Part shown: positions 38,884-60,931 of the stretch, one piece after another
How positions within the stretch are numbered: the stretch's first letter is position 1
Layout of the letters: the number at the start of each line of letters is the position of its first letter
DNA from: Candidatus Binatia bacterium
Lineage (GTDB): Bacteria > Desulfobacterota > Binatia > UBA9968 > JAJDTQ01
Length of the DNA stretch: 64,000 nucleotides
Reading direction: 5' to 3'
Assembly (NCBI GenBank): GCA_963666515.2
Contig: OY762897.2
Span: forward strand, 512,001-576,000
Program-made: the position numbers and the translations under genes
The notes under the pieces: model-generated
The model's database searches: none
What the model was told of the DNA's origin: nothing
The model's input: the letters and a program-made list of their open reading frames with translations, nothing else

Positions 38884-39927
38884 TCAGAACTCGATGCCGA
38901 TCTCCCTTGAACTGGCCAAGTCGAAGATGCGGCTGGCGATGGCGATGTCGGCGACGCCCTGTCCGGCGTTGTTCTTGAACAGGGTGATCTGCTCCGGGGA
39001 AGTCCGGCCGGGGATGTCACCGGTCAGCAGGTCGCACAGGTCGCCGACCTGGTCCCACTGGAGAATACCCTTCTCAACGGGCTCGTAGAAGTCGCCCTGC
39101 TGATCCTGGATGGCCTGCTCGCGGGAGTTGGCGACGATGACGTCGGCGCGCTGGACGGTGTCGTCGTCGATCTCGCGGCGCCTTTGCTTGATGAGGCCGG
39201 CGTTCATGAGGCCGACGTTGCCGCCGACGATGGAGGTGACGTGCACGCCGGGCTCCAGCCAGGAGCCGTCGAACACCGGCACGTTGGAGTTGGTGGCGGT
39301 GAGGACCACGTCGGCGCCCTCCACTGCCTCACGGGCGCTGTCTACCGGGACCAACTCGCATGGCACCAGCGGCTGCATCTCTTCGCAGAAGGCCGCTCGG
39401 CTCTCGGGGGTGCGGCAGAAGAGCTTCACCTGCTTGAACGGGCGGACGGCGGCGAAGGCCAGCAGGTGGTACTGGGCTTCGGCGCCGGCGCCGAGGAGCC
39501 CCAGGACGTCGGCGTCCTCACGCGCCAGGTGGCGCGTGCCCACCGCGCTGGTGGCGGAGGTGCGCAGTTGGGTGGCGCGGGTGGCGGGCACGCCCTTGAC
39601 GCCGAACCGGCCCACCAGCACTCCCTTGAGGGAAGAGTCCCGGGTGTCGAACAGCACCACGCACGGGCGTCCCGCGTGGTCGTAGGTCTGGTTCTCCGTG
39701 GACGTGGCCACGAACTCGGAGTGGGCCAGCACGCCGATGCCGCCCAGGCTGGGCACCCCGCCCGGATGCACGCTGACCCGGGCTCCCTCCCGGGTCATGA
39801 CCCGGCGGCGCGGGGCGTTGAGTTCCGCGTTGCCGCCGAGTTCCCGGAACCCCGTTTCCACCGCGTCGATGGCCTCCTCCATGGTGATGATGTCGGCTGC
39901 GTCTTCCGCTCGAATCAGTAGCGCCAC
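38884..39927 (-). CDS. Ornithine cyclodeaminase/mu-crystallin family protein
   Basis: LRTSATSAV, GAGAEA, ADVVLTATNS, PG.HVT, GRTSPEQITLFK..GQGVADIA. Confidence 0.9.
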   Translation of the reverse strand: MALLIRAEDAADIITMEEAIDAVETGFRELGGNAELNAPRRRVMTREGARVSVHPGGVPSLGGIGVLAHSEFVATSTENQTYDHAGRPCVVLFDTRDSSLKGVLVGRFGVKGVPATRATQLRTSATSAVGTRHLAREDADVLGLLGAGAEAQYHLLAFAAVRPFKQVKLFCRTPESRAAFCEEMQPLVPCELVPVDSAREAVEGADVVLTATNSNVPVFDGSWLEPGVHVTSIVGGNVGLMNAGLIKQRRREIDDDTVQRADVIVANSREQAIQDQQGDFYEPVEKGILQWDQVGDLCDLLTGDIPGRTSPEQITLFKNNAGQGVADIAIASRIFDLASSREIGIEF

Positions 39928-39971
39928 TGGTTGCCGTCCTTTCGCTGATTGTTCCGCCCGAGCGTGCGTGG

Positions 39972-41207
39972 TCACCCGGACGAGGCGCCGGCTGCCGCGG
40001 CCGGGACCGCTCTGGAGATTGCCCGTTCGTCGATGGGCCAATGGATGATCGCGGCCGCCACGCCCAGGCCGACGGCGGTCCACCAGATCAGGTCATAGGA
40101 GCCGGTGTAGTCGAACAGCACGCCGCCCAGCCAGATGCCGATGAAGCTGCCGATCTGGTGGTCCAGGAACACGATGCCGTAGAGCATGGCCATGTAGCGG
40201 GTGCCGAACACCTGCGCCACGATGCCGCTGGTGAGGGGGATGGTGCTCAGGAACAGCAGGCCGATGAGCGACGAGAACGCCACGACCGTGAAATGGGTCA
40301 TGGGAAACAGGAAGAAGCCCGCCATGACCACCGCCCGCCCGAAGTAGATCAGGCTCAGCAGGTTCTTCTTGCTGTAGCGGTTGCCGAGCACGCCCGCGCC
40401 CAGGCAGCCGATGACGTTGAACAGGCCTATCAACGAGATGGCGGTGGCGCCCACGGCGGGAGACAGTCCGTTGTCCAGCAGCAGCGGGGGCAGGTGCTGG
40501 GCGATGAACAGGGTCTGGAAGCCGCAGACGAAGAACCCGGCGGTGAGCAGAAGGTATCCCTTGTGGCGCCGGGCCTCCGCCAGGGCCTGCCAGGGCGTCT
40601 GGTCCGCCTGCGCCGCGCCCGCCGCCGGCCGCTTCTCGGCCAGTGCCGCGGAAAGCGGGACGATGAGCCCGGCGGTGGCCGCCAGCAGCACCAGGGCGTC
40701 CACCCAGCCGTAGGTCGAGATGAGGATCTGACCGAAGGGCACCACCAGGGTCTGTCCCAAGGAGCCGCCGGCGCTGCCGATGCCGAGGTAGAGACCGCGC
40801 CGGTGGGGCGGCGCGGCGCGGCCGATGACCGCAAGGACCATGGAGAAGCTCGTGCCGCTCATGGCCACGCCGGTGAGGAACGCCGTGCTGAAGGTCATGC
40901 TCCACGGGTCCGTGGACACCGACATGAGGTAGAGGCCGACGACGTAGGACACCGCGCTCAGGGCCACCACCCGGCCGGAGCCGTAGCGGTCGGCCAACCC
41001 CCCCAGGAGGGGCTGCGCCAGCCCCCAGATGAGACTCTGAAGCGCCACGGCGAACGAGAAGACGCCGCGGGGCCAGTCCAGGGTTTCGCTGATGGGAGTG
41101 AGGAACAGGCCGTAGGTCTGGCGGATGCCGAAGGCCAGCATCATCACCAGGGTGCCGCAGATGAGAACCACGACGGGGGTGCGCCAGGAGCGTTGCATGG
41201 GTCTCAT
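39972..41207 (-). CDS. MFS transporter
   Basis: GIRQ.YGLF, GGLADRYG, GFFVCGFQ, HQIGSFIG. Confidence 0.9.
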   Translation of the reverse strand: MRPMQRSWRTPVVVLICGTLVMMLAFGIRQTYGLFLTPISETLDWPRGVFSFAVALQSLIWGLAQPLLGGLADRYGSGRVVALSAVSYVVGLYLMSVSTDPWSMTFSTAFLTGVAMSGTSFSMVLAVIGRAAPPHRRGLYLGIGSAGGSLGQTLVVPFGQILISTYGWVDALVLLAATAGLIVPLSAALAEKRPAAGAAQADQTPWQALAEARRHKGYLLLTAGFFVCGFQTLFIAQHLPPLLLDNGLSPAVGATAISLIGLFNVIGCLGAGVLGNRYSKKNLLSLIYFGRAVVMAGFFLFPMTHFTVVAFSSLIGLLFLSTIPLTSGIVAQVFGTRYMAMLYGIVFLDHQIGSFIGIWLGGVLFDYTGSYDLIWWTAVGLGVAAAIIHWPIDERAISRAVPAAAAGASSG

Positions 41208-41273
41208 GAGTCATAGAGGCAGGAGGGAAGGGAGTCAAGGCGCGGGCGGGCCGGGGATGACAAGGGTCCCCGC

Positions 41274-42236
41274 ATGGTGCATATAGTGCTCGAAACGCTA
41301 CGGGCGGAAACGGCGGAACCAACCGCCGGAGGGTATGCGATGGTTTTCAGACTCGGCACCGCTGACACGGGCGGCACTTTCGACACCCAGGGGGCGGCGA
41401 TAGCAGAGGTCTTCAATGCGTCCCGCCCGCCGGAGGAACGTTGCGAGCTTACCCGAAGCTCTGCGAGCATCGACAACGCCAACCGGCTGGACCGGGGCGA
41501 GATCGAGTTCGGCTTCATGGCCTCCAACTGGGCGCCCCGGGCCGGGCGGGGGACGGAGCCGTTCGATCACCCCATCGGCCTGCGCATGGTGTCGCCGGCC
41601 AACGCCGGCCCCATCTTCTTCGTCACGCTGGCCGACACGCCGGTGGAGAACGTCGCCGATCTCGCCGGCAAGCGGGTGGCGGTGGGCGCCAGGGACAGCG
41701 GCATGACCCAGCACGTCCACACCCTTTGCGACGCTCTGGGCATTCCTTTCTCGGAGTTCACTCCGGTCTACATGGGGTTTCCCGAGGGAGCGGACGCCCT
41801 GGTGGCGGGGGAGGTGGACGTCCAGTTCCAGTGCCCGATTCCCAATGCCGTAATGACCGACCTGAGCCAACGGGCGCGGGTCACGGTGGTCCCGTACCGC
41901 GAGGAGCAGATCGAGCACGTGTTGTCGCAGGTTTCCTTCTACAGGCGGGTGATCATGCGCCGGGGCGTCTTCCGGGGCGTGGACGAAGACACTCCCCAGC
42001 TCGCGGTGCTCAACGTTCTGGTGACGCACGAGCGAGTGGACGAGGATCTCGTCTACGCGTTCGTCTCCACGCTGGTGCAGAACACCGGACGGCTGGCGCG
42101 GATCAATCCGTTGTTCGAGGGTTTGGATGAACTCTACGAACCGCTACGCACACAAGGGTCCCGGGCGCTGGAGTTGGAGGACGTGCCGCTGCACCCGGGC
42201 GCTCTCAGGGCCTACCGGGATGCGGGCTATCTTTGA
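41274..42236 (+). CDS. TAXI family TRAP solute-binding protein
   Basis: GTADTGGTF, ASIDN, DLAGKRVAVG..DSG, PLHPGA.RAY; start uncertain. Confidence 0.85.
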   Translation: MVHIVLETLRAETAEPTAGGYAMVFRLGTADTGGTFDTQGAAIAEVFNASRPPEERCELTRSSASIDNANRLDRGEIEFGFMASNWAPRAGRGTEPFDHPIGLRMVSPANAGPIFFVTLADTPVENVADLAGKRVAVGARDSGMTQHVHTLCDALGIPFSEFTPVYMGFPEGADALVAGEVDVQFQCPIPNAVMTDLSQRARVTVVPYREEQIEHVLSQVSFYRRVIMRRGVFRGVDEDTPQLAVLNVLVTHERVDEDLVYAFVSTLVQNTGRLARINPLFEGLDELYEPLRTQGSRALELEDVPLHPGALRAYRDAGYL

Positions 42237-42316
42237 TTGACGGGACGCGGCTGTTGGAGGCATCGTGGCTCGATTAGAGAAGCTCTCCGGCAGCCTTTGG
42301 GGAGGAGGACACGAAG

Positions 42317-44923
42317 ATGCGAACGGGAACATTGCTCAACCGGACATCGCTGATGTTTGTCGGCGGCCTGCTCGTGCTGGCCGGCGTCTTTTCCGATGGG
42401 CACCGCGCATCGGCGCAGACGCAGGAAGCGTGTCCGCTTCCTGCCGGCGGGACTCCTGTCACGCCCCCGCGGGTGACGGCGCAGCAGGTGGAAAACGGCA
42501 CCGGCAGCCTGAAGGACTATGCGCTGGACGCGAGGGAGCGGTCCAGAGAACATGCCCGGCAGGCCACGACCGTGGAACAAGGGCTGTATATCGCATGCCT
42601 CATAAGACAGGAGGGTGGGCCTTGGCGTTCCGGTTCCACCTACCTCGTGAGCCTGACGCCCGACGGCAGAGTGTTCCTTCACGCGAAGGACATGGCATTG
42701 TCCGGCAGGCTGCTCAACCCCTTGATTTATGCAGAGATACTTACTGCGCTGGGCGTCTCCCCAACCGACCTTGCCAACCTCGCGTCTGCCGATCCCGATA
42801 CGCGCCGCAGCGCCTTCGCTGCGGTCATGGCCACGTTGTCGCAGGAACCGGATGCTCCGTTCGATGCCACCGCCCCCATACCAGGCCTGCGGCCGGGCAT
42901 ACCCGGCGCTTCCGGCTACGCCGGCGTCTATGTCTCACCCGAACTACGGGCGCCGATCCTGCTGCTCGCCGGATTCGATCTCAACGCATCTCACCTGGCT
43001 CAGGAAGAGATCGATTACGGCGACCCTGCCATTACTGCCAGGGACGTCGTGGACCGGGAAACACTGAAGTCCTTCGTCACGCAAGCAGGGAATTACTTTC
43101 TTGATATCCAGAAGACCGGCGACGTAGGCACTGCCGCCAAGGCCAGGATCGCCTTGCGTGATCCGAACGGGCCCTGGAGACATGGATCCGTGTATCTCTA
43201 CGTCCTGGACCTCAACAGCAACATCATCACGTTTCACGCGGCGTTCCCGGACAGATTCGAGTATCGGCCTCTGACGCCTACCGTCCGCGACGCCGTGACC
43301 GGAGAGTTGATTCTGCCGCAAGTCATCGAGGCGGCGAAAAGCAGCCCGGAAGGCGGCTTCGTCCAGTACTACTTCGACGATCCCGGGGACGATACCGACA
43401 GTGCCGACATCCCCAAGCTGGGCTACGCCCGCGAGTTCGCCGGAAAAATCCAAAGGCCGGACGGAAGCACGATCCCGGTCGCCTTCATCGTCGGGTCGGG
43501 ATTCTACCTTAGCTCACCTTCGGTGGTCGCCGCGCGCCAGAACGCGGTCGTCAAGTCGGTGCTGCCCCAGGTCATGCGGGCCATGACCGCCGGCACGGTG
43601 GATGCGGTCTCGGGCCGCATCGAGCAGGCTACCTCCGGCACGCCGCCGGCCAAGGGGTTCAGCTTCGGCGGCGCCTCCACGTTCTCCGATGCCTTGCTGG
43701 CGCACGGGCGGGCGCTGGCGAACGGCTCGTTCGACGCCAGCCGGCTGCTCCAGGGCTCGTCCTTCACCCTGCCCCTCGACGCGGCGGCTAAGGGGCGGGG
43801 TGGCCGGCTCGGAAACCTGACGTTCTGGGGAAGCGGCGACTACCGCAATCTGGCAGGCGGCAACGCTCAGACCGTGGACTACGACGGCAACGTGGTGAGC
43901 GCCAACCTCGGAATCGATACCCGGGTGGGCGAGAACCTGCTGGCCGGGGTGTCGGCGGGGTGGGCGCGGGGGACGGTGGACTATACGGACCCCAACGCGG
44001 TGACGGGCGAGTTGGCGACCAACGTGACCAGCGTCAACCCTTACGTGGGCGTGCAGATGCAGGGTGGCATGAATCTCTGGGCCACGGGCGGCTATGGCTG
44101 GGGCGAGGTGGAGATCGACGATGCGTCGGCCGAAACGGAAGCGAGCGACCTGACGCAGAAGATGGTGGCGGCGGGCGTGAGAGGGCCGCTGATGTCCAGC
44201 GATGAGCTGTTGAAAGGCGGCACCACGAGCCTGAACCTCAAGGGCGAGACCGCTTTCACGTGGGCCGACGTCGATGGCTCGGGGACCCTGGAGAGCATGT
44301 CGCTGGCGGCCAGTCGGCACCGGCTGATGCTGGAAGGGAGCCATGTACGGAAACTCGCCTCGGGCGGGACGTTCACCCCGTCGATCGAGGTCGGCATGCG
44401 GTACGACGGCGGAGACGGCGAGACCGGCAGCAGTGTCGAGACCGGGGCCGGCCTGCGCTACATGGATTCGGCGAGCGGGCTGACCATGGAGGGCCGCGCC
44501 CGCACCGTGCTGGCCCATGGCGGCGACTACGAGGAATGGGGCGTAAGCGGGCTTTTGCGGCTCGATCCGGGTGCGGCGGGTCTGGGGTTTTCCCTCAGCG
44601 TGCAGCCGGCGTGGGGCCGGACGGCCAGCGGTGTGCAGCGGTTGTGGGAGACCGGGGCGCTGCCCGGCCCGGCGGCCAACGATCAGGCCGCGCGCGTCAA
44701 TGCGCGGGTCGGCTATGGCTTCGGCATCACGTGGGGCGGTCGGGGGGTGCTGACGCCCTATACCGACGTGTCGCTCTCCGGGAAGGGGTCCCGGCGGTTC
44801 AGCCTGGGCGGGCAATACAGGATGGGGTCGTCGGTCACGATGAGCCTGGAAGGCGTGCACAGCAATCCGGCGCACCGCGCCACCAGCCGGGGCGTCATGC
44901 TGCGCGCCGACCTCAACTGGTAG
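42317..44923 (+). CDS. Autotransporter with tandem Cache-like passenger domains
   Basis: Signal peptide; two GPWR.GS.YL..L repeats, EGGFVQYYF, IVGSGFY; C-terminal beta-barrel (WGSGDY, LGID, PYVG, PSIEVGMRYDGGD) ending in W. Confidence 0.8.
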   Translation: MRTGTLLNRTSLMFVGGLLVLAGVFSDGHRASAQTQEACPLPAGGTPVTPPRVTAQQVENGTGSLKDYALDARERSREHARQATTVEQGLYIACLIRQEGGPWRSGSTYLVSLTPDGRVFLHAKDMALSGRLLNPLIYAEILTALGVSPTDLANLASADPDTRRSAFAAVMATLSQEPDAPFDATAPIPGLRPGIPGASGYAGVYVSPELRAPILLLAGFDLNASHLAQEEIDYGDPAITARDVVDRETLKSFVTQAGNYFLDIQKTGDVGTAAKARIALRDPNGPWRHGSVYLYVLDLNSNIITFHAAFPDRFEYRPLTPTVRDAVTGELILPQVIEAAKSSPEGGFVQYYFDDPGDDTDSADIPKLGYAREFAGKIQRPDGSTIPVAFIVGSGFYLSSPSVVAARQNAVVKSVLPQVMRAMTAGTVDAVSGRIEQATSGTPPAKGFSFGGASTFSDALLAHGRALANGSFDASRLLQGSSFTLPLDAAAKGRGGRLGNLTFWGSGDYRNLAGGNAQTVDYDGNVVSANLGIDTRVGENLLAGVSAGWARGTVDYTDPNAVTGELATNVTSVNPYVGVQMQGGMNLWATGGYGWGEVEIDDASAETEASDLTQKMVAAGVRGPLMSSDELLKGGTTSLNLKGETAFTWADVDGSGTLESMSLAASRHRLMLEGSHVRKLASGGTFTPSIEVGMRYDGGDGETGSSVETGAGLRYMDSASGLTMEGRARTVLAHGGDYEEWGVSGLLRLDPGAAGLGFSLSVQPAWGRTASGVQRLWETGALPGPAANDQAARVNARVGYGFGITWGGRGVLTPYTDVSLSGKGSRRFSLGGQYRMGSSVTMSLEGVHSNPAHRATSRGVMLRADLNW

Positions 44924-44986
44924 TCGTACCCGTGCTCCCTCTGCCGGCAAGGGCCGGAACGAAGTCGGCGGAGGCACACGTGAGCC

Positions 44987-46300
44987 GTGGCAGGATCGAT
45001 GAAGAAACCCATTGACGCGGCAGAACTCCTCGTATCGAGAGCCGGCGAAGACGGCGACTTTCGCCAACGTCTTCTCGTGAAACCCAAAGAGACGATCGAA
45101 AAGGAATTCGGCGTGACGTTGGCCGAAGACCACGAGATTCACGTGCACGAGGAAACCTATGGCGCGACGCACGTGGTGCTTCCGCCGCGCAGCAAGTTCA
45201 GCAAGTCCGAACGGGAGGAGGCGAGAACCGGCGCCACCTCGCTAGAGTTTCTTCGCAAGACGCTCCACGACCCCGCGCCGCCCCTCCGTCCCCCCGCCAA
45301 CAAGCGGGCAAGAGCCCGAAAAAACGGTGCTAACTCCGAGGCGCTTGGGAGAGCGGCCAGAAAAAGCATCCGCCGCGGTCTCGTTTTCCTGGAATCCACC
45401 GTCGACGAGCAGTGGGCTTGGCACTGCATCCGGTTCAATGTAGCCAAACCGGACATTCCACGGCATTTCGAAAGACCTCCTTTCGTGTCGGCTCTCTGCG
45501 TGCTTGCGCTGCAAAGCAGCGATGAAGCGCGGGCCAAGGCCATGTGCGCCGCCACCAGGGCGTATCTCGTCAACACCATCGAGTATCCCGGATTGTGGCG
45601 TTACTATCGCCATCTGCCCCAGGATCTGGACAGCAGCTCACTCTGTTCGCTTGTCATTGGAACTCACCCGTGGATCCTGCTGGGAAGGAATGTTCCGCAG
45701 ATGTTGGCGAATCGCGACGAAGAAGGCCGTTTCATGACCTGGATGCTGGCGGAAGACCAACCCGATGTCGTGTCGCCCTTTCGAGTCGAAGCCGACCCGG
45801 TCGTCAATGCCAATGTCATCGCTTACCTGGGCGACCACGCCGAAACCAGGGATGCCCAACGATGGTTGGAAGCCCTGATCACCGAAGGCAGCCTCGAGGG
45901 CTCGTCGAAATGGTATCCCGACACGATCGCGATCTACTATGCGACCACACGCGCCATGATTTGCGCGCGGCCCGCTCTCGATTCACTACGCCCGATCCTT
46001 GCGGATCGTATCCTGGGCCTGCGCGACGGGAACGGAGCATTCGGCAACATCCTCCAGACCGCTCAGGCCGTGTCGGCGCTCTACAATATCGGAGGCCTTG
46101 AAAGCATCGACGCCAAACGCGAGGTGGAAAGGTTCATCGGTTCGCAACGTGAAGACGGTAGCTGGCCGGAGCTTCTCGCGTTCGGCGACCAAACGTTGAA
46201 GTGGGGCACGTTCGGGCAGATCGGGCATGGCTCCGAAGCCGTGACCTCCGCGTTTTGCATCGAAGCTCTGGAGCGTCTCGCCGAAGTCTTGAGGGCCTGA
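44987..46300 (+). CDS. NHLP-leader domain fused to a terpene cyclase/prenyltransferase-like alpha-barrel domain
   Basis: N-terminal RAGEDGDFRQRLL..PK.TIE.E.G.....EIHVHEE....HVVLPP aligns with the precursor leader; C-terminal DLDSS, RDEEGRF, RDGNGAF and QREDGSW (QW-like) motifs. Confidence 0.7.
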   Translation: MAGSMKKPIDAAELLVSRAGEDGDFRQRLLVKPKETIEKEFGVTLAEDHEIHVHEETYGATHVVLPPRSKFSKSEREEARTGATSLEFLRKTLHDPAPPLRPPANKRARARKNGANSEALGRAARKSIRRGLVFLESTVDEQWAWHCIRFNVAKPDIPRHFERPPFVSALCVLALQSSDEARAKAMCAATRAYLVNTIEYPGLWRYYRHLPQDLDSSSLCSLVIGTHPWILLGRNVPQMLANRDEEGRFMTWMLAEDQPDVVSPFRVEADPVVNANVIAYLGDHAETRDAQRWLEALITEGSLEGSSKWYPDTIAIYYATTRAMICARPALDSLRPILADRILGLRDGNGAFGNILQTAQAVSALYNIGGLESIDAKREVERFIGSQREDGSWPELLAFGDQTLKWGTFGQIGHGSEAVTSAFCIEALERLAEVLRA

Positions 46301-46378
46301 AGCCTTTGCGGGTTACTCTATGCGGTGGTAACATCGTACCTTGATGCCGGGGAGGAACAGTCCGTCAGGAAAGCTGCC

Positions 46379-48775
46379 ATGTCGCAAGATACAGCCGTAG
46401 GTGGCGGCTTGGGCCCAGACAACGCTGACGTCACCCAGCCCATTGAGCCGTCGATACGTAACGCCCTGCCGCATTACCTGCCACTGGGCATTTTTCCGCT
46501 GCTGCTTGCTGCCGTGATGTACGGCGGCTGGTGGTTGTTGCCGCCTTTTCTCTTCATGAGCGTCGTGGGTCCGCTTGATCGGGCGCTCGGTCCCGACGGC
46601 CGCAACATGGATCCGGAGAACACGCCGGAACGCCGGTTGCTCTGGCACAATCTGCCGGTCTGGACCTGGGCGTTTCTGTGGCCGGCGACGCTTGTTTTCG
46701 GCATGTGGCAGATCCTTGTCGCGAATCAGTTCGCGATCTGGGAAGCCGTGATCCTGGTGATCCTTCTCACCATGGAAGCACAGGCTGTCTTCGTGGTCGG
46801 TCACGAGTTGATTCACCGGCGCTCTACCTGGGAACGGCGGCTCGGAGAATTCCTGCTCGCCTCCGCTTCCTATCCGCAATATTCGACGGAACATGTCTAC
46901 ATCCACCATGCCAAGGTCGGCACGCCCCTTGATGTGGGATCCGCTCCAAAGGGGGAAAGTTTCTGGAGATATTTCCCCAGGGAGATCGTAAGCAACGTCA
47001 CCAACTCCTGGGACTTCGCCGGCGAACGCCTGGCGCGGCGCGGTCTGCCGCGGTGGCATTACAGCAATCAGTTCTGGCGCTACGGCATCGCCGTCCTGTT
47101 CTGGTACGGACTGGTGTGGTGGATGAGCGGGATCCTGGCGGTGCTGGTCTTTGCCTTCCTCGGTCTGAGCTGTGTCTTCTCGATGAAGATCAGCAACTAC
47201 TTCCAGCACTACGGTCTGCGGCGGGTGCGTCAGCCCAACGGCCGTTGGGAAAAGGTGATGCCGCGCCATTCCTGGGACGCCGACTGGAAGTTCAGCAACT
47301 GGATGTTCTTCAACATGCAACGCCATTCGGACCATCATGCCGCGGCGTCCCGCCACTATCCGCTGCTCCAGGTTCGGAGCGCCGACGACGCGCCGGTCTT
47401 GCCGGGAACCTACGCCGACATGATGAACATCGTGCTGCGGCCGAAGCGATGGTTCGAGAAGATGGATCCGTTGGTGGATCAATGGCGTGCGCATTTCTAT
47501 CCGGAGATCGATGACTGGAGCGCCTACGACAGCCCGATTTCCGCGGCGCGGCCGGAGGCCTTCGAGGCGATCGTCGAAATCTTCGGCACCGCCCCGCGGC
47601 TCGCCAAGTGGATCGAACGCAATCCCGAGCTCCTGGACTGTTTGCAGGAACGGGAATTCACCGACCTCGACCTGCCCAAGGGATTCGGGCCGGACCGGGA
47701 AACCGAGGCGATTGCGCGGCGCGGGCTTGCGAGGCTCTATTGGACGCTGGAAATGGGCGTGCAGGAGATGAAGGACCTGATCGCCGAAATCCCCACGGCG
47801 GATGCCAGGGAAACCGCCGAGATCGTGCGAAACTGGTCGAACGACAAGGCGTTTCAGATCGCCATGCACGTCTTGCGCGGAAACCTGTCGCCGGCCGAGG
47901 CGAAGACCGCCCTGTCTAATCTCGCGGAAGCGTCGATTTCGACCTTGCTCGGCGCGGTGGTGGCGGATGTGGTCGAACGGTCCGGACCGCTTGGCGCGGG
48001 TGGGGCCGCGGCGATATTCCTGGGCGATCTCGCCAGCCGGGAAGTTTATCCCGGCGTTGCCATCGACATGCTGTTCGTCCACGCCGGCGGCAGGATCGGC
48101 GACAATGAACGGCTTTGCCGGCAGTTCCGGGAGACCCTCGCCGACTTGGCCCGGGACAGTCTGTTGTTCTCGCCAATCGCGCCCGACCCGAATCCCCTTG
48201 CGGCGCTGCCCCTTTCCGAGCTGGCCGGGCATTGCGGGAGTCCTGCTTCCGGCACCATTCCCGTGCTCACCAGGGCGCGTTGCGTGTTCGAGTGCGGCGA
48301 CTCCGACATCGGCCGCCGCTTCGACGAGGCACGGCGCGACGCCTTGGCCGACTGCGGACGGAACGAGTCCCTGACTGGCGAGCCGCTCGAGCCACGGAAA
48401 GACGCCGCCGAAACCGGCGTGTCTGCATACGCCGATATGCGCGGCGGGCTGAATGACGTCGAGAGGGCCGCGCGGTTCCTGCAGTTGACGAATGGCGGGG
48501 CGGGCCTGGACGATCCGGCTCCGCCCGCGGTGGGGGTGCTTCATGGCGCGGGGGCGGAGCCCCTGGCGCAAGCCGCGTCCCTGTGGCGGGATTTGCAGGG
48601 CATCACGCGCCTCATCGGTGAGGAGGGGTTTGACGTGACCGCGGCGGGGCCGAAGGTCCACTCCCTCGTCGCGAGCGCATGCGGACACGCGGATTTCGAA
48701 GCGCTCAAGGCGGCGGTCGCCGAAACCGCGTCCCGCGCCGCCGCCGAGATCGATACGCTTCTTTCCCGCGCATGA
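46379..48775 (+). CDS. AlkB-type membrane di-iron monooxygenase/desaturase fused to a degenerate GlnE-like domain
   Basis: His boxes HELIH, EHVYIHH, NYFQHYG, QRHSDHH; C-terminal LSNLAE, LGDLASRE....IDMLFV, TRAR.V, GGLNDVE. Confidence 0.8.
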   Translation: MSQDTAVGGGLGPDNADVTQPIEPSIRNALPHYLPLGIFPLLLAAVMYGGWWLLPPFLFMSVVGPLDRALGPDGRNMDPENTPERRLLWHNLPVWTWAFLWPATLVFGMWQILVANQFAIWEAVILVILLTMEAQAVFVVGHELIHRRSTWERRLGEFLLASASYPQYSTEHVYIHHAKVGTPLDVGSAPKGESFWRYFPREIVSNVTNSWDFAGERLARRGLPRWHYSNQFWRYGIAVLFWYGLVWWMSGILAVLVFAFLGLSCVFSMKISNYFQHYGLRRVRQPNGRWEKVMPRHSWDADWKFSNWMFFNMQRHSDHHAAASRHYPLLQVRSADDAPVLPGTYADMMNIVLRPKRWFEKMDPLVDQWRAHFYPEIDDWSAYDSPISAARPEAFEAIVEIFGTAPRLAKWIERNPELLDCLQEREFTDLDLPKGFGPDRETEAIARRGLARLYWTLEMGVQEMKDLIAEIPTADARETAEIVRNWSNDKAFQIAMHVLRGNLSPAEAKTALSNLAEASISTLLGAVVADVVERSGPLGAGGAAAIFLGDLASREVYPGVAIDMLFVHAGGRIGDNERLCRQFRETLADLARDSLLFSPIAPDPNPLAALPLSELAGHCGSPASGTIPVLTRARCVFECGDSDIGRRFDEARRDALADCGRNESLTGEPLEPRKDAAETGVSAYADMRGGLNDVERAARFLQLTNGGAGLDDPAPPAVGVLHGAGAEPLAQAASLWRDLQGITRLIGEEGFDVTAAGPKVHSLVASACGHADFEALKAAVAETASRAAAEIDTLLSRA

Positions 48776-48842
48776 CGCCTCCGCATCTTGCCATGCGAAT
48801 GAACCGGACGGGACACTAGCCGATCCGGCGCGGAAAACCCAG

Positions 48843-51158
48843 ATGCCAGCGCAAACGGACGCGAATCCCCGGCGCGGAATCCTGATCAGGACGACTCCCG
48901 CGGACCAGGGCCTTGTCGAGCTTCCCGCGCTTGCGCCGCACCTGCAATTCCACGATATCGGCGAAAAGCAGACGCTGCTGGTTTCCGAGTCGTTCAATAC
49001 CCTGCTGCACGGCAAGCTGTATTGCGATCTTCTGCCGCTGCTCGACGGCCGGCGCCCGCCGGACGAGATTGTCGCCGCCCTCGATGGCGCCCATGCCGCC
49101 GCCGACGTTCTTGCGGCCATGGTTTCGCTCTCCGCCAAGGGCTATGTCGTCTCCGCCGATCACGGCATGGACCGACCACGGGCAGCCTACTGGTCGTCGC
49201 TTGGCGCATCGCCGCGCTGGGTCGAGCGACGGCTGGCGGAATCGCGCGTCGCGGTTGAAGGTGACGAGGGCCGGTTCATCCGGCATCTGGAAGAGGGCGG
49301 TGCCGGCGTGGGGACCGGCGGTCCCAAACTTACGGTCGTCGTCTGCGACGATTATCTTGAAGCACACCTTGCGGAAGTGAATCGGCGCCGGCTTGAGGCG
49401 GGAGCGCCGTGGACGCTGGTGCGGCCGCGCGGCATGGAGGCGCTGTTCGGCCCCGTCTTTCGCGCGGACAAGCGAGGACCCTGCTGGGACTGCCTGGCTT
49501 ACCGCCTGCGCAGCCACCGGGAAGTCCACGGTTTTCTGCGCAACGTTGCCGGCGAGGAGGCTGCCTTCAAGCCGTTCGCGGCCCAGCCCGCGGTGCTGGA
49601 AGCGCTGTACGGGCTGATCGCCGCGGAGATGGTCAAATGGCTGGTGCTGGAGGAGGCCGCACCGATTCACGAGCACGCGATCACCATGAACGTCGGCGCC
49701 TTCGCAAGTTCGCAGCATCGGGTCATGCGCCGGCCGCAGTGCCCGGCCTGCGGCGACGAAGCGTTGCATCGGCCGGATCGACCGCCGGTCCCGCTGTGTC
49801 TGAAGGCGAGTCCCAAAGCCCATCTCAACAGCGGCGGCGCCCGCGCCGTGGCGCCGGAAGTGACCCTGGCGAAGTACCGCCACCTAGTGAGCCCTATCAG
49901 TGGTGTCGTGACCTGGCTTTCGCGCACCACCGATGAGGCCGATCCCTGGCTGCATGTCTACTGGGCCGGAAGCAATCTCGGCATGAGAAGCCGGAGCCTG
50001 AGTTCGCTCCGGCGCAGCCTGCGCAGCAAGAGCGCCGGCAAGGGCAGCACGCGAGAGCAGTCCGAGGCCAGCGCGCTGTGCGAGGCCGTCGAGCGCTATT
50101 CGGGCGCCTTTCATGGCGACGAGATCCGCGTCCGCAAGCGATTCGTCGAATTCGCCGGAGAGGAGGCGATCCATCCCAACGATGCGCAGTTGTTCAGCGA
50201 CCGTCAGCTCGACAACGCGAAGAGCATCAACGCGAAGGGCCACCCCTACAACATCGTCCCGCCGCGTCTCGACCCCGACGCCGAAATCGACTGGACGCCG
50301 GTGTGGTCACTCACGCAGGAGCGGCCTCGCTACCTGCCGACGTCCATGCTCTACAGCATGCCGGCCGAGCAGCGCGGCTCCTCGGACCTGATCGCCGATT
50401 CCAACGGCTGCGCCGCCGGCAATACCCTGGAAGAGGCCATCCTGCAGGGCTTCTATGAACTGGCCGAGCGCGATGCGTTCGCCATCTGGTGGTATAATTG
50501 TCTGCGCGTGCCCGCGGTCGATCTTTCGAGCTTCGACGACGAGTACCTGGCCTCGGCCTCGGACCATTACGCCCGCTACGAGCGGGACCTTTGGATGCTG
50601 GACGTCACCTCCGATATCGGCGTTCCCGCGTTCGTTGCGCTCTCACGCCGGCCGGACGCCCAGACCGAGGACATCATTTACGGCGCCGGAGCCCACGCCG
50701 ACCCGCGCATAGCGGCCCTGCGCGCGGTTTGCGAGTTGAACCAGTGCCTTACCTGGCTGCCGCGTCCCGGAAGCGGGGACGGCCGGCCCATGATCGATGA
50801 TCCGCTGGCGCTTTGGTGGTGGAAGACGGCAAGACTCGCGGACTGCTCCTGGCTGGCGCCCGCGGCGGACGTTTCTCCGCGCAAGGCCGGGAGCTATCCG
50901 GTGATCGAATCGACGGACGCGCGCGAAGACGTGGAGCACTGCCGCGCGCTTGTCGAAGCCGGGGGGATGGAGTTCCTGGTGCTGGACCAGACCCGGCCCG
51001 ACATCGGCATGCCCGTGGTACGGGTCATCGTGCCGGGCCTGCGCCACTTCTGGGCAAGATTCGCGCCCGGGCGCCTGTACGACGCGCCGGTCAGCATGGG
51101 CCGCCGCGAGCGCCCCCTCGCCGAGGCCGATTTGAATCCCGCGCCTGTCATCGCGTGA
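48843..51158 (+). CDS. srpC: TOMM cyclodehydratase: leader-binding/E1-like domain fused to YcaO
   Basis: GPVF...GPCW.CL..R, RRPQCPACG, SAGKG, CEAVERYS, SNGCAAGNTLEEA, ELAERD, PGLRHFW, C-terminal PAPVIA. Confidence 0.92.
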   Translation: MPAQTDANPRRGILIRTTPADQGLVELPALAPHLQFHDIGEKQTLLVSESFNTLLHGKLYCDLLPLLDGRRPPDEIVAALDGAHAAADVLAAMVSLSAKGYVVSADHGMDRPRAAYWSSLGASPRWVERRLAESRVAVEGDEGRFIRHLEEGGAGVGTGGPKLTVVVCDDYLEAHLAEVNRRRLEAGAPWTLVRPRGMEALFGPVFRADKRGPCWDCLAYRLRSHREVHGFLRNVAGEEAAFKPFAAQPAVLEALYGLIAAEMVKWLVLEEAAPIHEHAITMNVGAFASSQHRVMRRPQCPACGDEALHRPDRPPVPLCLKASPKAHLNSGGARAVAPEVTLAKYRHLVSPISGVVTWLSRTTDEADPWLHVYWAGSNLGMRSRSLSSLRRSLRSKSAGKGSTREQSEASALCEAVERYSGAFHGDEIRVRKRFVEFAGEEAIHPNDAQLFSDRQLDNAKSINAKGHPYNIVPPRLDPDAEIDWTPVWSLTQERPRYLPTSMLYSMPAEQRGSSDLIADSNGCAAGNTLEEAILQGFYELAERDAFAIWWYNCLRVPAVDLSSFDDEYLASASDHYARYERDLWMLDVTSDIGVPAFVALSRRPDAQTEDIIYGAGAHADPRIAALRAVCELNQCLTWLPRPGSGDGRPMIDDPLALWWWKTARLADCSWLAPAADVSPRKAGSYPVIESTDAREDVEHCRALVEAGGMEFLVLDQTRPDIGMPVVRVIVPGLRHFWARFAPGRLYDAPVSMGRRERPLAEADLNPAPVIA

Positions 51159-51167
51159 GGAGACGAC

Positions 51168-52286
51168 ATGGAAATTGACGAGGCGGTCACGCTGACCCAG
51201 GGGCGGCTCGCCCAGGAGGGCGCCACTATGGCGGACTTGCTTGGGCACTTCCGCAAAAAGGTTTCGCCGGTGCTTGTGGGCGATCCGCAATGGCAGCGCA
51301 TACTCCAATGCGCCGGGCAACTCCCGATCACCATGGGCGCTCTTCCGTTCGGCTTCGAGCTGCCGCTGCATGAACCCGGGCCGGAGGCCGATTTCGGCGC
51401 CTCCCTCGCGAGCGGCACCAGAACCGCGGCGTTCTTCCGGGAGCGCGCGCGGACTGATGAAACGGATGAGACCGCGAGAGCCATCACGCGGTTGTTCGGA
51501 CAAATGGATGCCGAAAATTCACCTTTGCAGGAAATCGTCGGCCGCAAGTTGATGCTGGAATATGACATCGGCTCGGCGCGGGACAGGGAGCGTTCGCATC
51601 CGGGAATGTTCCTGCGGCCCGGCGAGCGCCCGATTGTCGGAGCCCGTGGTCAGGTGGACGATGTCGCTACGGTGGTTGACGCGCTCGTTTCCTGCGTAGG
51701 TTGGGAGGGGAGTGACGCCGAGCGCGAGAACGTCGAAAGGGTTTACCTGGCGCAGCCGGGAGATACCCGCCTGGATTCGTTCGGTGTGTTCCCGTCCCGC
51801 TCACGGTCCATCCGCCTGGCGATCATGGGCTTCAAGGCGCAGCAGGAACTGCGTGCCTATCTTGAAAACACGGGTTGGCCCGGTCGGGTCTCGGCCGTGG
51901 AGGCCGTGATTTCACGCTTCAGGGAACGTGCGAACGTCGTCAGGACCGGGGTGAACGTGGACGTGCGGGAAGAGGGTCTCGGTCCGACGCTCGGCCTGAC
52001 GCTCATCGTCAAGCAGAGGTATACAAAGGATTCACGTTACTGGCTTGACGGCCTGACCGACTGGGATCCGTTCCTGGAAGCCCTGGGCCAGGAGGATGTG
52101 GTCGTTCCGGAGAAGCTTGCGGCGCTGGCCGGCTGGGTTTCGAAAGCGACGCCGCTATTCGGGAAGTCCGGGCGTTTTGTGCTGATGCGCGGCATTCACC
52201 ACATCAAGCTGGTCATTTCCGGCGATCAGCTTCGCCAGGCCAAGGCCTACGTGTTCATGGTGCTCTCGGCCGCGGTCTCCCCTTGA
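51168..52286 (+). CDS. Conserved hypothetical protein of NHLP/TOMM clusters (possible ABBA prenyltransferase-like fold)
   Basis: FGFELPL...ADF, MLEYD, HHIKL, AKAY; 9 bp downstream of the YcaO gene with an AGGAG RBS; the fold assignment is inference. Confidence 0.55.
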   Translation: MEIDEAVTLTQGRLAQEGATMADLLGHFRKKVSPVLVGDPQWQRILQCAGQLPITMGALPFGFELPLHEPGPEADFGASLASGTRTAAFFRERARTDETDETARAITRLFGQMDAENSPLQEIVGRKLMLEYDIGSARDRERSHPGMFLRPGERPIVGARGQVDDVATVVDALVSCVGWEGSDAERENVERVYLAQPGDTRLDSFGVFPSRSRSIRLAIMGFKAQQELRAYLENTGWPGRVSAVEAVISRFRERANVVRTGVNVDVREEGLGPTLGLTLIVKQRYTKDSRYWLDGLTDWDPFLEALGQEDVVVPEKLAALAGWVSKATPLFGKSGRFVLMRGIHHIKLVISGDQLRQAKAYVFMVLSAAVSP

Positions 52287-52305
52287 CACCGGCCTGGAAC
52301 GGGAA

Positions 52306-52351
52306 AAACAAACCCCCGCCACCCCGCGATGGCGGGTGACGGGGGCTGTTT
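52306..52351. terminator. Putative bidirectional intrinsic terminator between convergent genes
   Basis: AAACA-aa-CCCCCGCCACCC loop GGGTGACGGGGG-c-TGTTT; GC stem with A/T tails. Confidence 0.6.
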
Positions 52352-52417
52352 CAAGCTGTGTACGGATGCGGATTCGGATTGTTCCGGATCTTGACCGGCT
52401 ACACGCCGGTTATGGGC

Positions 52418-52669
52418 CTACCAGCAGCAGCAAAGGCCGGCCGAGATGGCCTCGAGCTGCTCCTCGGTGATGTTCGGATCCGGCGGCAACGCGAGATGCA
52501 CCGTCTGCATGTCGCTCTCATGGACCACGACGTTCATCGAGTCGGGAATCGTGATGCCCAATTCCCCACTGATGGTGGCCTTCGGATCCGCGAGAAGCTG
52601 TTGCCTGAACTCCGGGTCCAGGGCCGACTTCTCAACAATCTGGTTCAGCATTTCGTCACCACTTCTCAT
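52418..52669 (-). CDS. srpE: NHLP (proteusin) RiPP precursor, core LCCCW
   Basis: Nitrile-hydratase-like leader (KSALDPEFRQQLLADPK..., VHLALPP, ITEEQLEAISAG) then LCCCW-stop; AGGAGG RBS. Confidence 0.93.
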   Translation of the reverse strand: MRSGDEMLNQIVEKSALDPEFRQQLLADPKATISGELGITIPDSMNVVVHESDMQTVHLALPPDPNITEEQLEAISAGLCCCW

Positions 52670-52702
52670 GGCAGTCCTCCTTTATTCTCATCCATGTTCA
52701 AA

Positions 52703-52730
52703 ACGGTAGCACACAATTTCGCAATGTCAA
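52703..52730 (-). promoter_or_regulatory. Dedicated sigma70-type promoter for the precursor
   Basis: Minus strand TTGACA (52730-52725), N16 ending TGC, TACCGT (52708-52703). Confidence 0.5.
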
Positions 52731-52761
52731 GCCCTTTGATATCGCAACTGACATGGACCGT

Positions 52762-55050
52762 TCACCTGGCGTCAATTCGTTCCACTGCCGTCAACAGCGC
52801 CGGCAGGAGCGTCAGGTCGGCAATGAGCGCGGAGCCGATGATGATCGCGGTCAAGACGCCGACCTGCGCGGTTGGAACGAACGGAGAAAACAGCAATATC
52901 AGGAAACCGGCCACCAGCACGACCGTGGTCGTGAACATGGCTTCGCCGGCCGTGTCGAAGGCGTGACGCACCGCTTCTTCCGGGCCTTGGCCGTCTTCCC
53001 GCCGCGCACGGCGGTACTTGCTGAGGAAATGCACGGTATCGTCCACGACGATGCCTACGGTCATGGCCACCACGACGGATAGCGAGAGTCCCACCTGTCC
53101 GACCGTCAATCCCCAGACGCCGAAACCCAGCACCGCGGGAACCAGGTTGGGAACGATGCTTATCAGACCCAGCCGCAGTGACCGCAAGGCGAAGAGGAGG
53201 ATGGCGGAGATGGCCAGCAGCACCACCATTGTCCCGACCACCATGGCGCGGATGTTGCGCTGTCCGATGTAGGCGAACAGCGCCGCGGGCCCGGTGCTGT
53301 TGACGCCGCCCACATGCGGCGCGTTCTCCCTCAGCCAGGCCTCGGCACGCGCGTTCAGTTCGAGCAGCTCCCGCGAAGAAAGCGTCTCCGCCGATATGGT
53401 CACGCGCGTGGCCGATCTGGATCGGTCGATCTGATTATTCAGGTTCAGACCCTGCGGGAGCGACAGCTCGTAGAGCACCAGGTATTGCGCCGCCAGCTCC
53501 TTACTCTCCGGAATCCGGTAGGCGGCCGGGTCGTTGCCGTGCATGCTCTGGTTGAGTTGCCGAAAGGTATCGGTGATGACCGCCACGTGGCGTACGCGGG
53601 GCTGCTCGCGGTACCAGGCGGCGAAGTTCGCAACGTCGGCGAGGAAACGGGGGTCGGTGACACCGCCCTCGGCGGCCGCCTGCAGCGAGTATTCGAGCAC
53701 GGTGTTGCCGCTCAGGCGCTCGTCCATGAAATCCGTATCCTGCCGAAACTGAACGCTCTTGTCGAAGAAATGAACCAGGACGTCATTCAACTCGTTGCGC
53801 GGAATGGCCAGAATCATGGCGGCCACGATCACCACCCATCCCCAGGTGATCATCTTCCTGTAGCGCAGCACGGCATCCGCCAGGAGGTTCATCGCGGGTC
53901 CGCGAAGCCGGCGGTCCCTTGCGGCACGGACCGGGAGAAGCGAAAGCACGGCCGGCAGAAAGGTGACGGAGAGAAGGAAGGAGGCGACGACACCGAAAGC
54001 GACGAAGTTGCCGAGATGACGGTAGGGAGGCACTTCGGAAAAGTTCATGCTCAGGAATCCGAGCGCCGTCGTGAGGCTCGCCAGAAACACCGGATGCAGG
54101 TTGAGCCCGACGGATTCGACGATGGCGTCGTGCGTGGAATCCCCGGCGCGCAGACGCTGCTGCAAAGCCACCAGCAGGTGCACGCAGTTTGCCACGACGA
54201 TCATCAGCACGATGGTCGGCGCCGGGGAGATGGGTGGGGAAAAAGGCAGACCGGCCCATGCGCCCAGACCCATCGACGCGAGAACGGAAAAGACGATGAC
54301 CATCCCGGTCGCCGCCACCCCGGCCCAACCCCGGGTGAGGATGCCGAGGATCAAGGCCATGAGCAGAAGGCTTGCGGGCAGGAAGATCATCTGGCTTCTG
54401 ATCGAGGCTTCCACGAAGGTCTGGTTGACCATGACCGTGCCGACGACGCGAAGGTCCATGCCGGGAAACCGTTCTTCCGCCTGCGCGGCCACCGATCTCG
54501 CGTATTCCGCAACTTCGCCCACGGCCTCCAGCAGGCCTTCCTGCGGCAGTTCGATGGTGACGCTGACGACGCTGACGTCACCGTTGCGGGCCAGCATGCT
54601 GCCTGCGAGACGAGGGTCGGACAAGGCGATGGCGCGGATTCGTGAGCGCGCTTCGGCCCGGGTCAGCTCCTGCGGGTCCACAAGATCCCGCACATACAGA
54701 TCGTCGCCGTCGGCGGTGGTGTATTGAAAGTTGGCGAGGGAGTCGACGCGCCTCGTATAGGGTGTCCGCCAAGCGGCCTCCGTGAGCCAGACGGCGGCCG
54801 AGAGTGCGTCTTGCGACATTGCGTCGCCGTCGTCCGGAACGATCAGGAACGCGACGTTCTCGTTCTTCCCGTAGGTATTCTCCAGCGCTTCCAGCGCCAG
54901 AAGCTGCGGATTGTCCTCGTCGAAGAAGATGCGGTAGTTGGCGGAGAACTCGAGGCGGGCAATGCCGCTTGCCGCCACCGCCACCAGGAACAGCGTGGTC
55001 AGGATGACCGGCCAGCGGTGCGCGAGCACCCATTCGGCAAATCGGGTCAA
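52762..55050 (-). CDS. MMPL/RND family transporter
   Basis: Two TM blocks, ASLTTALGF, PNLVP, GIVVDDTVHF, TT.VL.AGF; TTG start overlaps the upstream stop. Confidence 0.9.
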   Translation of the reverse strand: MTRFAEWVLAHRWPVILTTLFLVAVAASGIARLEFSANYRIFFDEDNPQLLALEALENTYGKNENVAFLIVPDDGDAMSQDALSAAVWLTEAAWRTPYTRRVDSLANFQYTTADGDDLYVRDLVDPQELTRAEARSRIRAIALSDPRLAGSMLARNGDVSVVSVTIELPQEGLLEAVGEVAEYARSVAAQAEERFPGMDLRVVGTVMVNQTFVEASIRSQMIFLPASLLLMALILGILTRGWAGVAATGMVIVFSVLASMGLGAWAGLPFSPPISPAPTIVLMIVVANCVHLLVALQQRLRAGDSTHDAIVESVGLNLHPVFLASLTTALGFLSMNFSEVPPYRHLGNFVAFGVVASFLLSVTFLPAVLSLLPVRAARDRRLRGPAMNLLADAVLRYRKMITWGWVVIVAAMILAIPRNELNDVLVHFFDKSVQFRQDTDFMDERLSGNTVLEYSLQAAAEGGVTDPRFLADVANFAAWYREQPRVRHVAVITDTFRQLNQSMHGNDPAAYRIPESKELAAQYLVLYELSLPQGLNLNNQIDRSRSATRVTISAETLSSRELLELNARAEAWLRENAPHVGGVNSTGPAALFAYIGQRNIRAMVVGTMVVLLAISAILLFALRSLRLGLISIVPNLVPAVLGFGVWGLTVGQVGLSLSVVVAMTVGIVVDDTVHFLSKYRRARREDGQGPEEAVRHAFDTAGEAMFTTTVVLVAGFLILLFSPFVPTAQVGVLTAIIIGSALIADLTLLPALLTAVERIDAR

Positions 55051-60752: not shown

Positions 60753-60931
60753 GACCGTCTGCACCCTCCTCACAGAGATACAGCAACGGGAAGGAAAATC
60801 TCATGCGGCGTGAGTGGAAGTCTGGGGGATATCTGGAGGATAATATGCAATCTCGACCCGGCAAGGTCAAGTCCTTTAACCTTGCAGGGGAATCGAGGTA
60901 CAATGCGGTATCTCCATCACGGGACCTGCGC

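Follow-up and report, generated by a model that had tools for sequence, protein, structure and literature searches.

The gene at positions 46379 to 48775 (forward strand) of a 64,000-nucleotide stretch of contig OY762897.2 from Candidatus Binatia bacterium, hereafter the window, encodes a two-domain inner-membrane protein that joins an intact AlkB-type oxygenase to one half-module of the glutamine synthetase adenylyltransferase GlnE. This fusion is a core, operon-linked member of the srp cluster of sponge symbionts, which specifies a peptide made on the ribosome and modified after translation (RiPP). The srp cluster is already known; what is new is an AlkB-family oxygenase with a pseudo-GlnE domain in a RiPP pathway, unreported in the literature searched, outside which the primary srp paper and its supplements lay. 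Within that scope, we found no mention of an AlkB or GlnE domain in the srp literature, and none of the papers listed in full-text searches ties AlkB or fatty acid desaturases to YcaO or proteusins, and srp terms do not occur in the review PMC12426817; the combination of prenyltransferase, proteusin, sponge and YcaO led to general reviews only. Among the biosynthetic clusters of sponge microbiomes, srp is reported to rank with the most widespread and the most strongly transcribed, with a mature product and an ecological role that are unknown (bioRxiv 10.1101/2023.06.09.544420; PMC11832590). The literature covered reports studies of three components only (YcaO, brominase and precursor), and the genes beyond precursor, YcaO, halogenase and transporters are referred to as "several genes of unknown function" (PMC11832590).

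An AlkB-type oxygenase fused to a GlnE half-module

The open reading frame (ORF) starts with ATG and comprises 798 codons plus a stop. A longer in-frame alternative begins at GTG 46325; however, exactly 798 residues are found in 54 of 80 related fusion proteins extracted from other genomes, and the family consensus N-terminus reads MxQDxA, so the start was placed at 46379. Judging from gene order, the gene is probably srpB, a name that we found in no paper. Pfam analysis matched both domains that the original prediction had named for this check, FA_desaturase (PF00487, residues 121-342, E 2.1e-27) and GlnE (PF03710, residues 462-569, E 1e-6, 28.8 bits where the cut-off is 24). From a 57-row alignment, AlphaFold2 produced a model with a pLDDT of 88.0 and a pTM of 0.85, in which both domains form one rigid body. 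The architecture of an AlkB domain followed by a GlnE-like domain is confirmed, with a likeness far beyond chance.

The N-terminal domain (residues ~20-375; 46436 to 47503, +) has the AlkB fold, a six-transmembrane-helix bundle with a cytoplasmic cap. Structural comparison using VIA-align superimposed residues 23-387 of the model onto the AlkB-AlkG structure (PDB 8f6t) with a Z of 38.2 and a root mean square deviation (rmsd) of 2.7 over 355 aligned residues, and gave a Z of 36.1 against the alkane 1-monooxygenase AlkB of Fontimonas thermophila (FtAlkB, 8sbb_A), at 26-28% sequence identity. Foldseek matches to AlkB structures had E-values of 7e-15 and 7.6e-12, and a phmmer search of the PDB returned two entries only, both of them AlkB (8f6t, E 3e-47; 8sbb, E 3.3e-38). 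The four histidine motifs of AlkB, which the original prediction had described with the variants EHVYIHH and NYFQHYG, can all be read in the translation: H142-ELI-H146 (46802 to 46816), E171-HVYIH-H177 (46889 to 46909), NYFQHYG (N273-G279; 47195 to 47215) and Q314-RHSDH-H320 (47318 to 47338), all on the forward strand. They supply nine histidine ligands (H142, H146, H172, H176, H177, H277, H316, H319 and H320) that align with those of 8f6t and 8sbb, and all nine, together with Gln276, are invariant in 80 of 80 rows of an alignment of the window protein and 79 orthologues. Gln276 takes the place of the conserved glutamate next to Fe1 (E281 of FtAlkB, in NYxEHYG), a residue whose role is described in the available part of PMC10110569; in more distant fusions this position is Q or E. 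In addition, the invariant Trp51 tentatively aligns, through a gap-rich stretch of a weak pairwise alignment, with Trp62 of FtAlkB, the residue said to restrict AlkB to shorter chains (PMC10110569, in part). According to the same source, AlkB substrates enter from the bilayer; the vestibule, which opens onto it, is a narrow channel, hydrophobic and with dimensions that suit linear chains. In its structure, the N-terminal domain is a complete AlkB-family di-iron oxygenase.

Compared to FtAlkB and AlkB-AlkG, the fusion not only has Gln for the Fe1 glutamate, but also carries a 420-residue GlnE-like C-terminus, sits in a RiPP cluster rather than in an alkane-degradation operon, and comes from a genome without rubredoxin: no match to PF00301 was found in this genome (98.35% complete), whereas a control search matched 7 of 14 reference genomes. 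Nor was a second AlkB homologue found in the genome.

The likeness of the C-terminal ~400 residues to GlnE, on which the original prediction had staked its case, was borne out by the structure model. This domain (residues 376-798; 47504 to 48772, +) consists of a helical N-terminal part, a Pol-beta-type nucleotidyltransferase core and a C-terminal helical domain resembling GlnD_UR_UTase. Residues 376-796 of the model superimpose onto the N-terminal domain of E. coli GlnE (1v4a) with a Z of 29.0 over 385 aligned residues, and the model matches the GlnE adenylylation domain (3k7d_B) with a Z of 27.4 over 361 residues and the AMPylase DrrA (6yx5_B) with a Z of 18.1. At the sequence level, a phmmer search of the PDB with the C-terminal 418 residues gave a best match of only E 0.1, to 3k7d. 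A relative by sequence is the 1013-residue protein P0256, of which residues 569-1006 match residues 388-794 of the fusion with 35% identity over ~410 residues (HMMER, E 1.9e-44); P0256 contains two GlnE and two GlnD_UR_UTase domains and is therefore a genuine GlnE. The assignment of the C-terminal domain follows from the Pfam match, this 35% match and the fold. The NCBIfam GlnE model PRK14108 also aligns, residues 392-567 falling on positions 576-726 of 986, at 68.3 bits against a cut-off of 724. Unlike GlnE, which has two tandem modules in about 950-1000 residues, the fusion possesses a single module of ~420 residues, and its genome keeps a separate, complete two-module glnE elsewhere (a 1006-residue frame) that matches the fusion weakly (29% over residues 445-570).

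The catalytic residues of this module have decayed. Residues 549-563 read GDLASREVYPGVAID (G549-DLASREVYPGVAI-D563; 48023 to 48067, +), and in alignment the GKLGSRE-MTVSSDLDLLF of P0256 faces GDLASRE-VYPGVAIDMLF in the fusion; where GlnE has the Pol-beta motif G-x-x-G-[GS]...D-x-D, the fusion has G-D-L-A-S...A-I-D. The first Asp of S-D-L-D is Ala561 in the window protein and A, E, T, R, K, Q, P or D among 13 full-length fusions, eight residues at one position, whereas the second acidic residue (D563) is D or E in every row, and G549, L551 and G559 are conserved. As a catalytic residue would not vary so freely, the nucleotidyltransferase is judged catalytically dead, which agrees with the original suspicion of a degenerate motif. 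The 80-row alignment further showed lower conservation C-terminally than in the AlkB half, with a mean identity to the window protein of 0.83 for residues 41-380 and also for the linker 381-460, compared to 0.76 (residues 461-600), 0.60 (601-700) and 0.70 (701-798). In sum, the fusion ends in a whole GlnE half-module with decayed nucleotidyltransferase residues.

The available part of the review PMC8918992 describes AlkB fusions to a C-terminal rubredoxin or to an N-terminal ferredoxin reductase plus ferredoxin, as the original prediction had stated in outline, and this part mentions neither an adenylyltransferase nor an AlkB-GlnE fusion. The present protein resembles those fusions in bearing an extra soluble domain, placed C-terminally as in the rubredoxin type, but differs in that the domain is a nucleotidyltransferase relic. 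No redox cofactor motif was found in the GlnE-like domain, the C-terminal half having one nearly invariant cysteine only (C768).

The srp cluster of the window and its conservation

The cluster around the fusion is a copy of the published srp cluster of sponge-derived RiPP proteusins, with no difference at the cluster level, as identified from an SrpE-type precursor, an SrpC-type YcaO enzyme and an SrpI-type halogenase; the two NHLP-type (nitrile hydratase leader peptide) ATP-binding cassette (ABC) exporters and the spread over many phyla of sponge symbionts are likewise shared. The cluster was reportedly described by Nguyen et al. in J Am Chem Soc in 2021. The original prediction was thus right to place the fusion in a RiPP operon, although the operon itself is not new. 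The 437-residue product of the "leader-fusion" gene upstream of the fusion was considered as the precursor, a candidate that was dropped in favour of the 83-residue SrpE found at 52418 to 52669 on the reverse strand. The srpE gene of 252 bases encodes MRSGDEM...NITEEQLEAISAGLCCCW, which comprises an NHLP leader, ITEEQLEAISAG and the core LCCCW, with the (I/L)TEEQL recognition sequence present as an ITEEQL variant. The three cysteines of SrpE are described as being cyclodehydrated by the YcaO enzyme SrpC, and the tryptophan as being brominated by SrpI (bioRxiv 10.1101/2023.06.09.544420, PMC10858898 and PMC12615548, each in part).

The fusion gene lies, as originally noted, between an NHLP-tagged gene (44999 to 46300, +) and the YcaO gene (48843 to 51158, +), which is followed by the gene of a 372-residue protein (51168 to 52286, +); the gaps within this four-gene run are 79, 67 and 9 bases. 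The NHLP-tagged product has an NHLP-leader-like domain fused to a domain like prenyltransferase/squalene-cyclase repeats, as judged from Pfam, NCBIfam, orthologue starts and protein-atlas scores, and its start was set at 44999 instead of GTG 44987 (the 437-residue ORF) because the orthologues begin with MKKP. The SrpC-type YcaO cyclodehydratase (PF02624, E 9.8e-96) also contains a winged helix-turn-helix and a leader-binding domain of the thiazole/oxazole-modified microcin (TOMM) type. The 372-residue protein has the fold of ABBA aromatic prenyltransferases, according to its structure model and a PDB fold search.

On the reverse strand beyond srpE stand an HpnN-like HAE3/MMPL exporter of the resistance-nodulation-division (RND) type (52762 to 55040, the upper end being approximate, with the ORF open to 55437 and relatives matching from residue 132), an NHLP bacteriocin export ABC permease/ATPase (TIGR03797-like; 55047 to 57977), a C39 peptidase-ABC exporter (TIGR03796-like; 57989 to 60199) and a 190-residue protein whose N-terminus is weakly like an NHLP secretion protein of the HlyD type (60201 to 60773). 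The forward strand then resumes with a LolA_like protein of the outer-membrane lipoprotein-sorting type (60803 to 61804, E 6.5e-58), a 409-residue protein with a weak DUF1302 match in the family scan (61804 to 63033) and the SrpI-type flavin-dependent Trp halogenase (PF04820; 63067 to 64000), which runs off the end of the window. Two forward-strand ORFs, 52358 to 52966 and 53314 to 54645, were rejected as genes, being antisense shadows of srpE and the RND gene; they had given spurious "conserved" tblastn matches.

The linkage of the fusion to the cluster was followed in the best 80 of 164 stretches encoding a fusion relative (one genome per species), where a neighbour was counted as present if it matched with at least 40% identity within the flanks fetched; several misses fall at contig ends. 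In these loci, where the fusion is 67-90% identical, the YcaO gene is present in 79 of 80, the NHLP-tagged gene in 76 and the 372-residue gene in 75, followed by the RND gene and the second ABC gene (73 each), srpE (69), the C39-ABC gene (68) and the halogenase gene (47), whereas the LolA_like gene and the weak-DUF1302 gene (61804 to 63033) were found in 21 and 19 loci, respectively. The order of NHLP-tagged gene, fusion, YcaO gene and 372-residue gene is kept on the same strand in every locus having them. Sixty-eight srpE-like ORFs of 83 codons were recovered, 65 ending in LCCCW, two in LCCSW and one in LSCCW, and the mean column identity of SrpE is 90%. In a word-indexed protein search with the fusion, saturated by close orthologues, the relatives among the 120 clusters listed are 74-100% identical and nearly all 787-813 residues long, those with a name being called "fatty acid desaturase" or "hypothetical protein", and the relatives of the 372-residue protein, again among 120 listed, are all at least 78% identical.

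Proposed role of the fusion and competing explanations

Several neighbours bear on what the oxygenase may act upon. The 372-residue protein has no Pfam or NCBIfam match, but its model (pLDDT 87.4, pTM 0.87) found 86 PDB matches at E <= 0.001, with ABBA prenyltransferases in all of the top places (EpzP, 3.3e-6; then 6-DMATS, TleC, NphB/Orf2, DMATS1, AmbP1, CloQ and IptA), and the protein-atlas leads also point, weakly, to an ABBA prenyltransferase. The predicted fold and the presence of the gene in 75 of 80 loci suggest that the cryptic srp product is prenylated. In the NHLP-tagged protein (~433 residues), residues 13-70 match the NHLP leader model of NCBIfam, and this leader-like domain is about 33% identical to SrpE. 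The remainder shows a weak SQHop_cyclase_C match and atlas scores of 0.92-0.96 to prenyltransferase/squalene-cyclase-repeat proteins, along with a conserved QDLDS(T/S)SLC stretch, which we take to recall the DxDD motif of class II cyclases. Moreover, the RND exporter has matches to HAE3 and to HpnN, a transporter of hopanoids. A polyprenyl synthetase gene directly behind one divergent fusion (L102), the entry of AlkB substrates from the bilayer and, weakly, the alignment of Trp51 also speak for a hydrophobic or isoprenoid substrate. The ABBA fold, the cyclase-like neighbour, the HpnN-like exporter and the LolA_like protein, read together by fold and family name, suggest that the product may carry an isoprenoid or other lipid part. 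As a side observation, the HpnN-like HAE3/MMPL RND protein, the LolA_like protein and the weak-DUF1302 protein make up an export set of a kind that is typical for lipids.

We tentatively propose, with somewhat less than even confidence, that the target of the AlkB domain is an aliphatic, probably isoprenoid, moiety of the srp product, which it oxidises at the membrane during maturation, and that the GlnE relic serves as a non-catalytic docking domain. With O2 and two electrons, the AlkB domain would hydroxylate, or oxidise in another way, a membrane-partitioning aliphatic group that dips into the inner leaflet. The target would most likely be an isoprenoid group added by the ABBA prenyltransferase or, failing that, the side chain of the invariant core leucine. 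The oxidation would take place after YcaO has rendered the core hydrophobic and before export via the ABC and HpnN-like RND systems, with electrons drawn from some donor that is not rubredoxin. The GlnE relic would transfer no nucleotide and would instead form a rigid cytoplasmic docking platform for a partner, as its C-terminal position, where rubredoxin sits in AlkB-rubredoxin fusions, leads us to propose; the electron donor, another Srp enzyme and the NHLP leader are candidate partners. A complex prediction for the full fusion with SrpE, both supplied as alignments, returned a score of 0.00, that is no answer, and was taken neither way.

If such oxidation takes place, the srp product should carry a prenyl group plus oxygen, or show the loss of two hydrogens, and it should be membrane-associated. 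An oxygenase that has a prenyltransferase-fold protein, a protein resembling cyclases and an exporter of the hopanoid type as neighbours thus yields concrete predictions on the cryptic product, and an AlkB working without rubredoxin while carrying a domesticated GlnE pseudo-enzyme would be of interest to enzymology. A wider picture, in which the product is a peptide-isoprenoid hybrid and the ABBA prenyltransferase, the NHLP-tagged cyclase-like protein and the AlkB fusion form one lipid-tailoring module, must be rated doubtful; here the fusion would be the first AlkB-family membrane oxygenase in RiPP maturation, with rubredoxin dependence lost and a pseudo-GlnE recruited for docking.

Divergent fusions allow this proposal to be weighed. 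An exhaustive search found full-length fusions down to 32% identity (12 listed, 780-828 residues). Five genomes from the genus of the window carry a second fusion type, about 53% identical, which in all three loci fetched (L088, L089 and L090) adjoins YcaO, one or two copies of the 372-residue gene and an RND gene; these loci are without the NHLP-tagged gene, and L088 has two copies of the 372-residue gene. The precursor of L090 (777 to 1016, +) ends in SAGLCCCGI, which gives a core LCCCGI with no tryptophan. A scan of a metagenome collection used an alignment of the distant fusions, but its patterns came from the AlkB domain and mostly plain AlkBs were returned, so that 3 of the 80 loci kept are fusions. 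One of them, L091 (52% identical), is flanked by genes of a pyrroloquinoline quinone (PQQ) alcohol dehydrogenase, an acyltransferase_3 protein, an FG-GAP protein, an AcrB-type RND protein and two NHLP-type ABC genes; another, L102 (51% identical), is directly followed by a polyprenyl synthetase, then an AcrB-type RND gene and a pyridoxal phosphate (PLP) decarboxylase. The YcaO and 372-residue genes were not found in the 8-kb flanks fetched of these two loci.

Several of these results weigh against an oxidised isoprenoid on the peptide. The contexts of L091 and L102, which lack YcaO and the 372-residue gene within the flanks fetched, fit a peptide-independent role concerning lipids or hydrocarbons. 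Tryptophan cannot be the universal acceptor of the prenyl group, given the core of L090. The prenyltransferase assignment of the 372-residue protein is by fold only, at TM-scores of 0.43-0.56 and rmsd values of 7-10. Because Gln replaces the Fe1-proximal glutamate in all 80 rows, the chemistry may differ from alkane hydroxylation. Finally, the substrate of the AlkB domain is a proposal from gene context, and the role given to the GlnE relic is pure inference.

The strongest competitor, though an unlikely one, is an oxygenase that does not act on the peptide at all, but hydroxylates or desaturates a membrane lipid, an isoprenoid or a host-derived hydrocarbon. It might do so for self-protection, for an export-competent envelope or to supply a lipid that is attached later, and would travel with the cluster for that reason. 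The gene neighbourhoods of L091 (PQQ alcohol dehydrogenase, acyltransferase_3) and L102 (polyprenyl synthetase), both with AcrB-type RND genes, argue for this role, as do the HpnN-like RND and LolA_like genes of the window and the fact that the characterised family members in the available parts of PMC10110569 and PMC8918992 all act on lipids or hydrocarbons. Another link to membrane transporters comes from the protein P0226, in which the C-terminal third of AcrB is followed by the same GlnE-like module; the module may be tied to RND transporters. Against a peptide-independent role stand the tight operon linkage with peptide-modifying genes in 79 of 80 loci and the very high conservation together with the precursor SrpE. 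The fusion is also the sole AlkB homologue of the genome, and no alkane-degradation genes appeared among the adjacent window ORFs scanned. The original prediction would have been weakened by a fusion common outside RiPP clusters, which was not seen: YcaO adjoins it almost throughout the 80 loci and in all three divergent same-genus copies, with the two divergent metagenome copies lacking it in the flanks fetched.

It is rather improbable that the di-iron domain is an azoline desaturase, an idea put forward in the original prediction; such an enzyme would take two hydrogens from the thiazolines made by YcaO to give thiazoles and so replace a missing SagB-type dehydrogenase that uses flavin mononucleotide (FMN). 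As the original prediction had observed, no SagB/nitroreductase gene was found in the window; the four PF00881 matches of the genome are all elsewhere, and none of the scanned cluster ORFs matches. The fusion adjoins YcaO in 79 of 80 loci and in the three divergent same-genus copies, and LCCC is the invariant part of the core. YcaO linkage, absence of SagB and the change from Glu to Gln allow a desaturase, but nothing supports it directly, and the divergent fusions L091 and L102 are without YcaO in the flanks fetched. To our knowledge, no AlkB-family enzyme acts on a peptide heterocycle. The Gln that stands for the AlkB-specific glutamate near Fe1 would be in keeping with the desaturase SCD1, where water occupies this place (PMC10110569, in part), yet the same source depicts the AlkB vestibule as narrow, hydrophobic, facing the bilayer and sized for linear chains, and the brominase substrate is described in the available part of PMC10858898 as thiazolines.

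Least of all do we expect an active adenylyltransferase that AMPylates a Tyr, Ser, Thr or carboxylate of the peptide or a partner through non-canonical residues, for although the whole half-module fold is kept (Z 27-29), D563 (D/E in all rows), G549, L551 and G559 are conserved and the AMPylase DrrA is a structural neighbour, the first metal-binding Asp is Ala and freely variable across the fusion family, A-S stands where the motif has G-[GS], the region ranks with the less conserved stretches of the protein and the NCBIfam GlnE score is 68 against a cut-off of 724 bits.

Distribution and further observations

At least eight phylum labels occur among the 80 loci; of the 79 rows other than the window, 7 bear none. 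On a FastTree phylogeny of the fusion, the phylum labels need 10 changes, compared to a minimum of seven and a shuffled mean of 27.4; the gene therefore mostly follows lineages after a few inter-phylum transfers. Of the 24 other genomes in the genus of the window, 13 have the C-terminal domain, compared to 0 of 16 from the order's other genera, which marks the fusion as an accessory gene. Sequencing runs labelled "sponge metagenome" contain the stretch, among them X5 (share 0.28; 340 pieces, 39 of them at 99% or more) and X10 (2355 matching pieces). Contigs of the sponge metatranscriptome X23 cover 30 of 30 bins of 44900 to 52700, the fusion included (46895 to 47198, ~86% alike); they stem from related copies, give no measure of expression level and may reflect DNA carry-over.

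Among the divergent fusions, that of L090 (10493 to 12879, -) falls into two overlapping frames (residues 1-410 and 406-794), and the fusion match at G012:C1:497611-498864 contains one TGA; either may be a split or damaged copy, or else an artefact of assembly. An AcrB-type gene lies directly 3' of the fusion in L091 (10376 to 13579) and in L102 (3216 to 6407). Elsewhere in the window's genome, about 1.3 Mb from the cluster, a 562-residue frame (G000:C1:1887179-1888468, -) has two nitroreductase-domain matches; it is possible from these matches that it encodes a SagB-like dehydrogenase acting in trans.

The left flank of the cluster (38884 to 44923) holds an ornithine cyclodeaminase-family gene (-), a 391-residue gene product without family, a TAXI TRAP binding protein and an 868-residue protein with weak autotransporter-beta and dCache matches. 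These genes are common only to the closest loci (L002-L004, L006, L007 and L079), which places the left border of srp near 44987. L079, labelled as a Vicinamibacteria bacterium, has a fusion 90% identical to that of the window and shares its left-flank genes; it groups with loci labelled Binatia or Deltaproteobacteria, and its label may reflect binning rather than transfer.

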